Positions 3,404-33,546 of a stretch of 36,151 nt of DNA are shown here, piece after piece. The stretch is from IMG/VR virus record IMGVR_UViG_3300013131_000009, positions 1-36,151 of that record; one strand, 5' to 3'. Both the position numbers and the translations under genes were made by a program. Under the pieces are notes generated by a model. The model was not told the DNA's origin and ran no database searches. It was given only the letters and a program-made list of their open reading frames with translations. Position 1 is the first letter of the stretch, and every line of letters begins with the position of its first letter. The DNA comes from a virus.

Positions 3404-4275
3404 CACTGAGCCTCCACCGCTACACGCTGCGCATCTGTCAAAGCATAACCATCCAAGATATAAGCCTTGTCAATCGCACCAGCATTCAACTGTTCAAGTA
3501 CCGCGCCAAATTCATCATCGCTTAGCGGTAGTTTTGGTGCTTCTAAATCCGCAACCGATTCGCTGTGGTCGATATAATCAAACTCGTCTTTTTCCACATC
3601 ACGGATGATTGCTTGATCTGCCATTTGTGCTTTTTGCATATCAATTGAAAGTGGTGCCTGCTTCGATAAAAGTAGCTTCAACACGGTTTTAAGTGCCATC
3701 GCTTCAAACTGATCTTTCCACACGCCAAAGCCTTTTTTAGCTGTTTGGCTGTATTTGTTAGCGTGCTTCATTACTTCTTCTTTACTCATGTAAAGTTCAG
3801 CAGTAAAGCCATTAATCAGCTTGAAAAACGCCACATATCCAATCGGGTTGCCATTTGGCTTAACTGACCAATCGAACTCATAACCAAGTAAAGGATTTTC
3901 GCTAATCAACTGCCCATCATAAACAGGTGTTGCAGCAATACGACTGAACTGACCAGAACGTTGTGCTAACTGGATGTATCCCTTGTACCCAAGTTGAAAT
4001 TGAGCTTCGATGGTGTTTGTTTTGTTGTTCTTGAAAGGAACAATGTAGGCAAAACCGAGATTGTTATTGATTGGCAAATTCAGCGTTGCAGCCATACATG
4101 CAGCACTAAAAATAGTTTGAGGATCTGCATTTACCAACATTGAGTTGCTGTTCACGATCTGCAATACAGACGTTGCAAAAGCAGGGGCATTTTTACCAAC
4201 AAGTTCTTTTAGCTTTTCCTGAACCATTGGCTTTGCGAAAAAGTCTTTAGCGTTGTGTTTTACTGGTGCATTCAT
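3403..4275 (-). CDS. recT: RecT-family single-strand annealing protein
   Basis: GFAYIVPF, QFQLGYKGYIQLAQRSGQ and GYVAFFKL are characteristic RecT blocks. 290 aa, adjacent to the exonuclease gene. Confidence 0.85.
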   Translation of the reverse strand: MNAPVKHNAKDFFAKPMVQEKLKELVGKNAPAFATSVLQIVNSNSMLVNADPQTIFSAACMAATLNLPINNNLGFAYIVPFKNNKTNTIEAQFQLGYKGYIQLAQRSGQFSRIAATPVYDGQLISENPLLGYEFDWSVKPNGNPIGYVAFFKLINGFTAELYMSKEEVMKHANKYSQTAKKGFGVWKDQFEAMALKTVLKLLLSKQAPLSIDMQKAQMADQAIIRDVEKDEFDYIDHSESVADLEAPKLPLSDDEFGAVLEQLNAGAIDKAYILDGYALTDAQRVAVEAQ

Positions 4276-14169: not shown

Positions 14170-14736
14170 ATGAATATTGCAGAAGTTGAAAACATCCAGG
14201 ATAAATTTGCTGAATTTGAATGGCTCACAAGAGGTATTACAGCAAAATCACCAAACTTTGAACCACAGGCACATGGTACTGGGGAAAAGCCTTTGAATTA
14301 TGAAGATCGTTTAGGGGCGATTGCGAGCATGGATACTCAATTAGCAAAGTCAGTGACAGCCCTTATTGTATTTGATGGGAAGTGTGAAAGTGAATATGAG
14401 TATGTGCGTAATCATCTAGTTAAGATCATGTTAGTTAATGCTAAGAGTGATAAAAAGCGTGAGCCTGAACATATCACTATGAATCACTTGGCTTACTTGA
14501 TTGCTCGAATGGTAATTGATTTTGCTTTAAATCCTGAACTTGAGGGGAATTTTACAGCACAAGGTCGATTGTATTATGCAGGGATTAATTCAATGCAAAT
14601 GCAAACTGAGATTTACCGCAAGACATGGAAGCCATACGAAAATCTGATGTGTTTGGCGCTTGAATCTGCGATTGATGAGGCGTCTCAAGCTATTAAGAAA
14701 TATAAGAAAAATACTTACAAAGAAATGCGAGTGTAG
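14170..14736 (+). CDS. Hypothetical protein; possible late-gene regulator (by position only)
   Basis: It is the last gene of the early rightward operon (AGGTGG + 6 nt + ATG) and is directly followed by two terminator modules before the packaging genes. No motif recognised. Confidence 0.6.
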   Translation: MNIAEVENIQDKFAEFEWLTRGITAKSPNFEPQAHGTGEKPLNYEDRLGAIASMDTQLAKSVTALIVFDGKCESEYEYVRNHLVKIMLVNAKSDKKREPEHITMNHLAYLIARMVIDFALNPELEGNFTAQGRLYYAGINSMQMQTEIYRKTWKPYENLMCLALESAIDEASQAIKKYKKNTYKEMRV

Positions 14737-14813
14737 GGATTCCATTTTTGCGGAAACCACGGTATAGTTAAACTATACTGGTCGTATTACATGGTAAAGT
14801 GACCAATCATTAA

Positions 14814-14838
14814 AGCTCACAGAAATGTGGGCTTTTTT
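14814..14838 (+). terminator. Intrinsic terminator A (GAAA tetraloop)
   Basis: AGCTCACA-GAAA-TGTGGGCT is an 8-bp stem with one G.U pair, followed by a T run that starts at the last stem base (TTTTTT, 14833..14838). Confidence 0.65.
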
Positions 14839-14865
14839 AATGCCTGAAATATTCAAGAGATCAGC

Positions 14866-14970
14866 ATGTTTAAATTCTTAAAACAATTGTTCTGTACTCA
14901 CGAATATGAGTACGAATCAGATATTTTCATTCAAGTTGAATGCCGTAAGTGTGGCAAATTGAAAAAGTAA
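14866..14970 (+). CDS. 34-aa Cys-rich mini-ORF (zinc-ribbon-like CxH...CxxC)
   Basis: The product is MFKFLKQLFCTHEYEYESDIFIQVECRKCGKLKK. It lies between the two terminator modules and has no clear SD. Confidence 0.35.
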   Translation: MFKFLKQLFCTHEYEYESDIFIQVECRKCGKLKK

Positions 14971-15014
14971 CCCTGTCACCACGGTGACTTCGCCGAACGT
15001 ATTACGGCACATAA

Positions 15015-15049
15015 AGCCCTCACAGAAATGCTGAGGGTTTTGTTTTTTA
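15015..15049 (+). terminator. Intrinsic terminator B
   Basis: AGCCCTCA-CAGAAATGC-TGAGGGTT is followed by a TG-interrupted T run, TTGTTTTTT (the first TT of the TTTT after TGAGGG belong to the stem). The loop and flank are paralogous to terminator A. Confidence 0.65.
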
Positions 15050-15060
15050 TTGGTGATTGC

Positions 15061-15243
15061 ATGGATTTAGTCGAAGCTAAAAAGAATCTTGAATCATTGC
15101 ATCAAGACAAAGAAAAATTGGAAAGTCTCAATCATCTCAATTCAACGTTTCAGTTTAAACAAGCATGTCGTCAACGCATTAACGACATAGACAGGCAGAT
15201 CAGCAATATTCAACACAGTATCAAACGCTATGCGAGACCGTAA
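15061..15243 (+). CDS. Hypothetical coiled-coil protein
   Basis: Start set at ATG 15061, after terminator B. The track start (15028) lies inside the hairpin. Confidence 0.5.
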   Translation: MDLVEAKKNLESLHQDKEKLESLNHLNSTFQFKQACRQRINDIDRQISNIQHSIKRYARP

Positions 15244-22221: not shown

Positions 22222-22260
22222 GACGACAAATGCCCGCTATATGCGGGCGTCGTCATTTTT
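22222..22260 (+). terminator. Rho-independent terminator after the capsid gene
   Basis: GACGAC...GCCCGC-TATAT-GCGGGC-GTCGTC is followed by ATTTTT. Confidence 0.8.
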
Positions 22261-31331: not shown

Positions 31332-31373
31332 GTTTTAACTCACTTTTTATTTTCCTAAGATTAAACCACATCA

Positions 31374-31397
31374 GCCGCCTTAATTGGCGGTTTTTTA
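31374..31397 (+). terminator. Terminator-like hairpin immediately upstream of the tailspike RBS
   Basis: GCCGCC-TTAATT-GGCGGT is followed by a T run that starts at the last stem base (TTTTTTATT, 31391..31399). It ends 13 nt before the ATG at 31410. Confidence 0.45.
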
Positions 31398-31409
31398 TTG
31401 GAGCTATAA

Positions 31410-33500
31410 ATGGCCAATCTCGTTACACCAATGCCAATGATTCGCGCTCGCTTCTTTGATGACAATGCCCGCCCATTATCAGGTGGTAAAATTTACACCT
31501 ACGAGCCAAACACCACTACGCCAAAAACCACATACAAAGACTTAGCGGCAACAACCCCAAACACCAACCCGATCTTGCTTGATGTGGCGGGTGAAGCGGA
31601 TATTTATTTTGATGGCCAGTATCGAGTAATTGTTGAGTCGTGGCGCGGTGAGCGGCTTTATGATGTTGATAATATTGGAGCACTGGCGCAAATTAAAGCC
31701 AACTTCGTTGTCGACGCAAGCGGACAAACACAGCAGCAGATAAATGATTATAGAAAATCAAAATTCATCTATCCTGAAGATTTTGGTGCAGTCGGAGATG
31801 GTGTTTATAATGACGCTGTAGCAATGCAAAACGCTCTAAATGTAGCAGCAACAAATAAGCGAGTTCTGTCATTCACGCATGGAAAAACTTACAACTGTAC
31901 AGGTGTCACACTTGACGCTTCATGTCATATTTATGGTAATGGTGCTACACTTAAAGGCTATCTTCGTGTAACTGGTGATGATCTTGTTATTCGAGATTTT
32001 AATTTAATAAGCACTAATGCTGTGATAGGGCTATATTTATTTGGCTCTACCACAGTCCCAACTAGATATTACAGACAGAAAATCCATAATGTTAAAATTA
32101 CTTTCGATACTGGTGTTGCTACTGGTGATTCATTCGGCTTGTATGCAAGTAACATTGACAACTTAGAGGTTACATCTTGTAATATTCAGTATGCGATACA
32201 GTTGATTGGATGTACAGATTATTTAATTGACGGTAACATTATTGACGGTAACAACTACTCTAACAATAATGAACTTATTCATGCATCTAGGTTGTCATAT
32301 GGTCAGATTTTAAATAACACGTTTAAAAACTCTCTTGATAATTTTATTGACTTGTATTCTTCTGGTGCACGTACAATTGTTGCAAACAATAGATTTTTGT
32401 CTTGTAAAACAAGACTTGGTACAGCAATAGAAATTAAGGTTACAATGTCAGACGATCCAGCTAACTCGTCTAGTGACGCATTAGGATGGGCTGAACAAGT
32501 CATAATTTCAAATAACTATTTTTACGACATTAAGGCTTATGGTGTACAAACTACATCGTTTATCAACATTTATTATATTGACTCACGTGCTGCACCCTCG
32601 TTTAGTTGGGCAAATACACCAAGAAACTTCATTATTGATGGTAATATTTTTGATGGTTTTGATGCAACTTTACACGGTACAACTTACTTTTCCGCAATCA
32701 AATTGGAGTCTATCAACGCAGCGTTAATAAGTAATAATGTTTTCAGAAATCTAGCATTGGGAACATCAAACGACATATCATCGTGTGTTTGGATTGAAAA
32801 TTGCCAAGACATTATTGTAAATTCGAATAGAATGTCAATAAAGGACGGTACTGGTATTTCCCTTCACGGGGATTGTAAAAATATTACAATATCAAATAAT
32901 CACATATTGCAAGATTTAAACAAATCACAAATACCAAAATACGGGATACGTATTACGAAAGAGGGCGCAAGACCTGATCCGACAATCACATTTAGTAAAT
33001 TTGTAGGAAACACTGTTTTTTGCTCACTTTCTGCGTTTCGTCAATTGTTCTACGCTAACGGATACATGAATGACTGTATTATCTCTGATAACGTTTTCCA
33101 AGAGCAAACAGATTTCGGCAAAATCAACAGGTGTATTATTTCTGATAATAAATTTTTTGTCGGGTCAACTCGTTTTCAGGCTTTGGGTGTTGGCGATCTT
33201 GGCGGTATTTGTGCACACAACACGATTACAAATAATCAGGTTGAATCAAACACAACTACGCAAAAACCATGTATATCAATAACTCGACTGCGCGGTAGTA
33301 ATATTTCTGGAAACACGGCGAGAAATGCAACACATGGTATGATTATTCTTGGAACAAACGTGGCTGGAGAATTGGACTATCTGAATATTAAAGATAATTT
33401 TTCGATTAACCAAACACAGGCAAACTTTCCAACATTGTCAAATATTAATGCAACAGATAGTGCAACACACCAATCAGCAAACAATCAAAAGATAACATGA
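31410..33500 (+). CDS. Tailspike / tail fibre with pectate-lyase-type beta-helix (probable polysaccharide depolymerase)
   Basis: The N-terminus (GGKIYTYEPNTTTPKTTYKDLAATTPNTNPILLD) is a common phage fibre anchor. YPEDFGAVGDGVYNDAVAMQNALN is the Pectate_lyase_3 start, followed by many N/I/G-rich beta-helix rungs. Confidence 0.8.
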   Translation: MANLVTPMPMIRARFFDDNARPLSGGKIYTYEPNTTTPKTTYKDLAATTPNTNPILLDVAGEADIYFDGQYRVIVESWRGERLYDVDNIGALAQIKANFVVDASGQTQQQINDYRKSKFIYPEDFGAVGDGVYNDAVAMQNALNVAATNKRVLSFTHGKTYNCTGVTLDASCHIYGNGATLKGYLRVTGDDLVIRDFNLISTNAVIGLYLFGSTTVPTRYYRQKIHNVKITFDTGVATGDSFGLYASNIDNLEVTSCNIQYAIQLIGCTDYLIDGNIIDGNNYSNNNELIHASRLSYGQILNNTFKNSLDNFIDLYSSGARTIVANNRFLSCKTRLGTAIEIKVTMSDDPANSSSDALGWAEQVIISNNYFYDIKAYGVQTTSFINIYYIDSRAAPSFSWANTPRNFIIDGNIFDGFDATLHGTTYFSAIKLESINAALISNNVFRNLALGTSNDISSCVWIENCQDIIVNSNRMSIKDGTGISLHGDCKNITISNNHILQDLNKSQIPKYGIRITKEGARPDPTITFSKFVGNTVFCSLSAFRQLFYANGYMNDCIISDNVFQEQTDFGKINRCIISDNKFFVGSTRFQALGVGDLGGICAHNTITNNQVESNTTTQKPCISITRLRGSNISGNTARNATHGMIILGTNVAGELDYLNIKDNFSINQTQANFPTLSNINATDSATHQSANNQKIT

Positions 33501-33524
33501 TCAAACCCATCATTTAAAACTATA

Positions 33525-33546
33525 AAGCCCTTCGGGGCTTTTTTAT
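33525..33546 (+). terminator. Rho-independent terminator after the tailspike gene
   Basis: AAGCCC-TTCG-GGGCTT is followed by TTTT, making a TTTTTT run with the last two stem bases. Confidence 0.8.

Follow-up and report, generated by a model that had tools for sequence, protein, structure and literature searches.

We analysed a complete phage genome of 36,151 bp with terminal repeats (IMG/VR virus record IMGVR_UViG_3300013131_000009, hereafter the window), whose relatives are temperate Acinetobacter phages and prophages. The segment of interest comprises a gene for a candidate Q-like regulator of 188/189 residues (positions 14170-14736) followed by two short units, module 1 (14737-14838) and module 2 (14992-15048), with a small coding slot between them. 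A first-pass annotation had described these units as duplicated four-element modules flanking a Cys-rich open reading frame (ORF), and had likened them to the PR'-qut-tR' region of lambda or to the cis-acting put RNAs of phage HK022. About 50 related Acinetobacter loci were gathered by means of the 189-residue protein alone, not by their DNA, and the DNA 3' of each stop codon was then read. All of the window features described below lie on the plus strand, except for the unstranded palindrome of module 1.

Organization of module 1

Module 1 has a gap-free layout that is kept in 49 of the 50 related loci. Starting from the stop codon of the regulator gene, it consists of three nucleotides (nt), a palindrome of 16-19 nt, a further 8 nt, a TAnnnT hexamer, 5 nt, a second hexamer of the form TAnnnT-GG, the sequence TCGTATTACGG, a hairpin UGGUC...GACCA with a box in its loop, an A-rich linker and a terminator. 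The regulator gene thus adjoins its target unit, the stop codon lying 3 nt 5' of the palindrome in the same proportion of loci (49/50). Every column of the stretch CTATACTGGTCGTATTAC is at least 90% conserved.

The first hexamer, TATAGT (14763-14768), is the candidate -10 element of a late, PR'-like promoter, and TAnnnT is found at the same position in all 49 anchored loci, as TATAGT, TATCTT or TATTCT. Distant members of the protein family, with 25-30% identity, share the downstream part of the module and have, in register with it, a promoter of textbook form, in which TTGACA or TTGACT is followed by an 18-nt spacer, the -10, 5 nt and TAnnnT-GG-TCGT. For example, locus L112 reads TAATTGACA-18 nt-TATAGT-TTTTC-TATACTGGTCGTATTAC, and locus L099 has TTGACT-18-TATATT. 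Because these homologues place a canonical -35 in the same register, the upstream hexamer is assigned as the -10. The alternative that TATACT is the true -10 was rejected, as it has no fitting -35 and the distant homologues set their -35 relative to the upstream hexamer.

The second hexamer, TATACT-GG (14774-14781), lies 5 nt after the -10 and may act as a sigma-dependent pause element, at about +1 to +6 of the predicted transcript. All 43 unique relatives have the pattern TAnnnT-GG, the hexamer variants being TATACT, TAAGAT, TAAATT, TAGACT and TACAGT. The geometry matches that of lambda PR', where 6 nt separate the -10 TAAATT from the pause element AACGAT-GGG (+1 to +6) and the pause occurs at +16/17. 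In the window, the corresponding pause would fall at about +16/+17 (14790/14791), at the end of the first copy of the CGTATTAC box (14783-14790), the columns of which are at least 90% conserved. Counting 16 nt from the start of the second hexamer leads to the C of CGTATTAC, and most relatives have G after it. The general pause consensus is GG-N8-Y-G, which GGTCGTATTAC-G fits in most relatives, and such a pause sequence is said, in 2016 work of Bird et al. (cited in PMC9371919), to form part of sigma-dependent pausing.

Downstream of the hexamers, the putative short transcript would fold into two hairpins. The first, H1 (14779-14805; UGGUCG...UGACCA), holds the box in its loop and folds in every variant tested, including those with shifted arms. 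The variants were folded singly; RNAalifold did not recover H1, since indels misalign its 3' arm. The second is the tR'-like terminator T1 (14812-14838), which is present in nearly all relatives and would also end the early operon; the RNA of module 1 has a folding z of -4.4. Transcription starting near 14775 and ending at T1 would give an RNA of about 64 nt. T1 and the terminator T2 of module 2 (15013-15048) each form a strong hairpin with a U-run behind it. A consensus terminator scan overlooked both of them, probably on account of pairing between A-tract and T-tract that lengthens the stems into the T-run.

The palindrome and the regulator protein

The palindrome of module 1, ATTCC-N8-GGAAA (14739-14756), is the putative Q-binding element, with its centre at a constant 15.5 nt 5' of the -10, about -27.5 from the predicted start. 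Dyad symmetry and centre are kept among relatives while the sequence varies by class: class A is TTCC-N8-GGAA, as in the window; class B is TATCA-N6-TGATA; class C is TTCG-N6-CGAA; and class D (AGGAAAA/TTTTCCT) is AGGAAAATTTTCCT or AGTAAAATTTTACT. Residue 151 of the regulator (numbered in the 188-residue form, within QTEIYRKTW) predicts the class perfectly, with K for class A, L for B, M for C and C or A for D. Among 38 distinct sequences, this residue and the palindrome class have a mutual information of 1.82 bits, which equals the class entropy. Proteins sharing about 90% identity with that of the window (L008-L010) differ exactly at residue 151 when the site differs, and relatives of 40% identity obey the same rule (K with ATTCC in L042 versus M with ATTTCG in L043). 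Residues 145-148 rank next in mutual information, whereas columns nearer the C-terminus score lower although their codons lie closer to the site on the DNA, which speaks against mere linkage. From this covariation, the 189-residue protein very probably binds the palindrome. The same comparison of sequences argues strongly, if indirectly, that this palindrome is recognized by the helix beginning at residue 146, and the dyad symmetry suggests that two protomers are bound.

The protein belongs to phrog_5656, which is labelled hypothetical by every source naming it in two protein searches. The family is small: clustering of 1.8 billion proteins at 50% left 43 representatives of it. In an hmmscan against Pfam-A at E≤0.1, no family was found for the protein, including the Q families PF03589, PF06530 and PF06323; none of 21 family members matched PF03589 or any other Pfam family, and PF03589 and PF06530 had zero matches across the whole 36-kb genome. 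A profile search of the PDB sequences with the family retrieved no known structure, hhalign against the single Q-lambda sequence gave no useful match, and a scan with the distant member P0021 as the query gave no matches. Aligned to the profile of the Q-lambda family by hhalign, the N-termini run collinearly, albeit weakly, with a probability of 23%, which we treat as a hint.

Two AlphaFold models built from different alignments are all-helical, with predicted local distance difference test (pLDDT) scores of 81.5 and 83.1 and predicted template modelling (pTM) scores of 0.76 and 0.77; the N-terminal segment of about 40 residues is of low confidence. For each model, the only PDB match with a template modelling (TM) score above 0.3 is 7ubn_Q, the Q-lambda protein in the engaged loading complex (TM 0.57/0.52 and 0.53/0.49, probability 0.93 and 0.94). 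Moreover, the top match in BFVD is annotated as 'Antitermination protein Q' (E 1e-3, probability 1.00). In the models, a candidate helix-turn-helix is formed by helix 130-137 and the helix from residue 146 onward; the specificity residues, including the K151 that tracks the site, are at the start of this last helix. The Cys4 zinc-ribbon arm was not found in the 189-residue family: its alignment contains no conserved Cys and the models are all-helical, whereas the columns of Cys118, Cys121, Cys144 and Cys147 are invariant in the Q-lambda family alignment. The protein is best placed as a zinc-less, Q-lambda-like factor that existing profiles have missed. The first-pass annotation had recognized neither a Q nor an N family in it, which holds by sequence but not by predicted fold, Q-lambda being the sole relative.

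Module 2, the cargo slot and the late genes

Module 2 consists of a box hairpin and a strong terminator. The hairpin H1' (14992-15008; GCCG-AACGTATTA-CGGC) holds the second copy of CGTATTAC (14998-15005) and is nearly invariant in relatives. The terminator T2 (folding z -4.2) sits directly 5' of a ribosome-binding site and the ATG at 15061. No promoter or -10, no palindrome and no TAnnnT-GG pause hexamer were found in module 2. In most relatives, the core GCCGRACGKATTACGGCACATAA, with strong terminator, T residues, ribosome-binding site and ATG, lies 0.25-2.3 kb 3' of the Q-like gene. An exact-pattern scan located the box in at least 120 viral contigs, once per phage, and in four of five host genomes searched it occurs once per genome, inside a prophage. 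A host-wide repeat was rejected, as there is one copy per genome and it lies within a prophage; a selected DNA palindrome or kissing-loop partner was rejected as well, since a frequent T-to-G variant breaks the symmetry uncompensated. Among the relatives, the stem of T2 shows compensatory double changes in 5 of 14 consensus pairs, while the pairs of H1' are invariant or wobble only, in an alignment that was partly chosen by the box pattern, which limits the weight of its conservation. Two variant arrangements were seen: a 32-nt box unit, GCCGAACGGATTACGGCACATAAAACCCTTTT, repeated twice in tandem before a single terminator (L013:4449-4512, on the same contig as L084), and two complete box-plus-terminator units, each 5' of a gene (L041).

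The box is also found in phages of other kinds. Among the first 80 box contigs are 30 in which upstream sequence of more than 2.5 kb contains no member of the 189-residue family. Several of these carry instead a Q gene of the PF06530 (Q21) type, accompanied by a TTGACn-CATATT promoter of its own, another -10-like hexamer and a terminator resembling T1. Such genes are found at L070:8841-9359, L109:975-1469, L059:7574-7999 and L110:9729-10256 (coordinates of re-oriented copies), each followed by TTGACn-17-CATATT. As judged from these sequences, two unrelated Q families share the downstream leader. Since the box occurs behind PF06530-type Q genes, it is not the site of the 189-residue protein, and this assignment was rejected. 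Phages with neither Q family encode a protein of 254-260 residues (MLIEKFDFLE...) 5' of the box (L086:3320-4084 and L123:9101-9883, re-oriented copies), which may be a third kind of late regulator. Altogether, module 2 reads as a conserved, putative gate independent of the Q type; its role as a terminator is clear, and T2 would serve as a gate toward the late genes.

The interval between the modules is variable cargo, comprising tRNA genes, a 34-residue ORF and other small ORFs. In the window, it contains the 34-residue CxH...CxxC ORF that had been noted at first pass, at 14866-14970, a member of phrog_4188 (E 2e-9); at least 12 loci have a protein-level homologue of it in the same slot. The family (L002, L006, L022, L023, L025, L034 and others) occurs in the cargo slot in every case, mostly with a GCCAC-UUCG-GUGGC hairpin behind it. 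The window counterpart, GTCAC-CACG-GTGAC (14975-14988), marks the 3' end of the ORF cassette and has no counterpart in module 1; its relatives, GCCAC-TTCG-GTGGC, always lie directly after the 34-residue ORF family, with a compensatory change from T-A to C-G. Of 37 loci, 18 have a tRNA gene (Arg-TCT, Met-CAT or Ile-TAT) 3' of the Q-like gene, which in 15 cases lies between the modules. In Stx and other lambdoid phages, a slot for morons or tRNA genes lies downstream of PR'. The Acinetobacter slot is alike in placing variable cargo, including tRNA-Arg and tRNA-Ile genes, between a Q-dependent promoter and conserved late genes, and unlike it in being closed by a conserved box and terminator, for which we know of no lambdoid counterpart. 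In TRS1 (L001:3900-3950), a lysogen with the same class of cassette, the tail GGGCTTTTTTAATGCCTGAAAT comes after the second terminator, and in the window (14830-14852) after the first, which looks like a trace of recombination at terminators during cargo exchange.

How far the two modules are alike can now be specified. All of the motifs on which the duplication had been proposed are present: ACCACGGT at 14756 and 14978, CGTATTAC at 14783 and 14998, and CTCACAGAAATG at 14816 and 15019; a third copy of CGTATTAC, at 32949, is unrelated. Nowhere in the window but in module 2 are three to four exact blocks of module 1 found in collinear order (28-35 nt in total, against 19 nt for the runner-up), so the resemblance is not due to chance. 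The boxes of both modules have the 10-mer CGTATTACGG in common; we estimate the chance of this at about 1e-4 for two conserved elements this long. In H1 the box occupies the 5' side of the loop, in H1' the 3' side. The sharing may go back to common descent, or it may mark a pause signal or a site of RNA processing. While this likeness and the shared box stand, the other elements of the proposed pair are not general. The sharing of ACCACGGT is coincidental, because module 1 of relatives has ACCAAGG or ACTAAGC at that position and the hairpin near module 2 travels with the 34-residue cassette. The 'first hairpin' ascribed to module 1 turns out to be the -10 and the second hexamer (TATAGT ... TATACT), whose complementarity is lost in relatives with TATCTT or TATTCT. 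The 12-mer CTCACAGAAATG is common to T1 and T2 in the window phage only, the T2 stems of the close relatives L006 and L044 being unrelated, which suggests recent gene conversion between the two terminators.

The first gene past the gate (15061-15243) encodes 60 residues, belongs to phrog_3194 and is the first conserved gene of the late leader. It is followed by a DUF968/HNH gene, a 52-residue ORF and the genes for NinB, terS, terL and portal; the modules do not directly adjoin the packaging genes, four genes or ORFs lying between module 2 and terS. Further terminator-like hairpins are present in the co-oriented late region, at 22230-22250 (3' of the coat gene), at 31373-31392 and at 33524-33541 (3' of the tailspike gene). 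The second of these, noted at first pass, is real and together with its T-run spans 31373-31398, directly 5' of the tailspike gene (31410). The third is symmetric, and it could act bidirectionally. A polymerase moving rightward from module 1 would thus encounter T1, terminators in the cargo, T2 and these hairpins, which fits the earlier proposal that the late genes need a terminator-resistant polymerase.

A candidate Q-type late switch

Module 1 is best read, from its sequence, as a cassette of Q gene, Q-binding element, PR', sigma-dependent pause and tR'. We put the probability at about 0.75 that module 1 and the 189-residue gene form a Q-type late switch of a new, zinc-less and palindrome-reading variety. 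We propose that gene 14170-14736 encodes a Q-type antiterminator with a Q-lambda-like helical body and a C-terminal helix-turn-helix, but no zinc-ribbon arm. The late promoter would start transcription about 7 nt after TATAGT, near 14775. Sigma-70 would then re-bind at TATACT-GG, and RNA polymerase would pause about 16 nt downstream, within GGTCGTATTAC. The protein, probably as a dimer, would bind the palindrome at about -35 to -20 and be transferred to the paused polymerase. Without the protein, the transcript would end at T1 as the two-hairpin RNA, whereas with it T1, the cargo, T2 and the terminators within the late region would all be read through. Module 2 would not serve as a second loading site; its box and strong terminator would close the cargo slot, so that only an antiterminated polymerase enters the late genes. 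The earlier analogy with lambda PR'-qut-tR' fits module 1 and its upstream gene well, but the idea of a duplicated arrangement is not supported, since module 2 lacks the palindrome, -10 and pause hexamer and is also found 3' of PF06530 Q genes.

Compared to the lambda system (Q of PF03589, PR', Q-binding element, pause element and tR'; 7ubn; PMC9388147), the window has the gene directly 5' of its target promoter and a site between the -35 and -10 positions, as in the Q-dependent late cassette described previously (PMC9388147). Both have a -10-like pause hexamer with G residues at about +1, a pause about 16 nt later and a short terminated transcript (the latter two predicted here), and late genes behind terminators. 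By predicted fold, the proteins may also be alike in a helical body and a poorly ordered N-terminal segment of about 40-60 residues, and the last two helices, which form the helix-turn-helix in Q-lambda (PMC9388147), would do so here too. In contrast to lambda, the 189-residue protein has neither a PF03589 match nor the Cys4 zinc-ribbon arm, and the window promoter has no -35. The site is palindromic, implying two protomers, whereas the lambda site is asymmetric, 13 bp long and monomer-bound; the terminated RNA would be about 64 nt, compared to 194 nt in lambda.

A Q-like factor without a zinc finger has precedents in AlpA of Pseudomonas aeruginosa, acting at PalpB-tB, and in the Q protein of phage 82 (PF06323) (PMC9371919, PMC7969949). 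In these systems, a C-terminal helix-turn-helix binds an element between -35 and -10, the factors need a sigma-dependent pause, and an N-terminal segment rings the RNA exit channel (PMC9371919, PMC7969949). Except for a zinc finger inserted in lambda Q, both lambda Q and 82Q are similar to AlpA (PMC9371919). Unlike in our case, one AlpA molecule binds per element; the 189-residue protein has no sequence match to either AlpA or 82Q, and neither was among the fold-search matches. The Q protein of phage 21 (PF06530) shares the logic of the cassette and puts two protomers on its Q-binding element, and genes of this type occupy the same position in other Acinetobacter phages with a T1-like terminator and the module 2 box. 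However, its fold is unrelated (PMC9388147) and its site is a direct repeat, not a palindrome.

Several observations weigh against the proposed switch. The Foldseek E-values against the PDB (0.5-0.7) are not significant, the root-mean-square deviation is about 9 Å and the TM scores are borderline; at the sequence level, the protein matches no Q family, and the profile-profile probability is 23%. The window has A, not G, after the predicted pause position. Module 1 is missing 3' of two homologues, L053 (after position 3537), where a plain terminator directly follows the gene, and L098. The window promoter has no recognizable -35 (TTCCAT at 14740-14745), and the palindrome overlaps that position. 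A palindromic site is also unprecedented among solved Q-site complexes, in which Q-lambda binds as a monomer to an asymmetric site and Q21 to a direct repeat (PMC9388147).

The missing -35 and the palindrome overlapping its place, centred at about -27.5, mean that the 189-residue protein could be, or could also be, a classical activator, which recruits RNA polymerase from a site replacing the -35 and leaves T1 as a leaky attenuator or a maker of small RNA. The covariation, moreover, speaks for binding to the site and not for what this binding does. Such an activator is unlikely in our view, as the distant family members with consensus -35 and -10 elements would need none, a terminator 40-60 nt past the start and TAnnnT-GG are kept in all of these members, and the only fold relative is an antiterminator, though both activities could coexist.

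We give far less credence to a role for the module RNAs in cis, in which hairpin and box would make the polymerase terminator-resistant without any protein. This agrees with the conserved two-hairpin RNA, with the box common to both modules and with the retention of the module 2 box regardless of the upstream Q family. The put RNA of HK022 (PMC9378689) is likewise a cis element made of hairpins, close to where a transcription unit begins, and each genome has two copies. But put acts without protein after two different promoters, whereas here one copy is promoterless and both lie directly before terminators; each box is less than 30 nt 5' of a strong conserved terminator, which would be pointless if always overridden. 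A fold shared by the two module RNAs has no covariation support. H1 and H1' show invariant or wobble pairs and no compensatory double changes; the box sits on opposite sides of the two loops, hence no common structure; and an Rfam search (E≤10) yielded only weak leader-like matches, caused by the terminators. We therefore hold the put-like reading offered at first pass to be improbable. Just as improbable is that nothing here is regulatory and that ordinary terminators flank an inserted moron, the 34-residue ORF, their likeness arising from terminator recombination: the slot contents do differ among phages and the 12-mer confined to the window phage suggests local gene conversion, yet this leaves unexplained the invariant gap-free 60 nt from stop codon to H1, the covariation of palindrome and protein, and the canonical promoters in register in distant homologues.

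Returning to the Q-type switch, a bolder version of it is possible, though we hold it to be less likely than not. Here the family would constitute a fourth, unannotated Q-type branch, zinc-less, with a dyad site and an almost one-residue code (K/L/M/C at 151), whose natural specificity classes would be exchanged among Acinetobacter phages. Separately, and irrespective of the Q type, the GCCGRACGKATTACGGC box and its terminator would together act as a signal at the late gate; they could serve for pausing or RNA processing, or form the body of a small RNA.

The present analysis would give a function to the hypothetical family phrog_5656 and locate the late-gene switch in a common group of temperate Acinetobacter phages, which helps the annotation of prophages and the prediction of the cargo that induction would switch on. 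What the window contributes is the putative recognition code, together with the shared gate. The natural classes, in which one residue goes with one half-site, offer a ready-made system for studying how Q-type proteins read DNA and are loaded on paused RNA polymerase, and the palindromic binding site, if true, would represent a new loading geometry.

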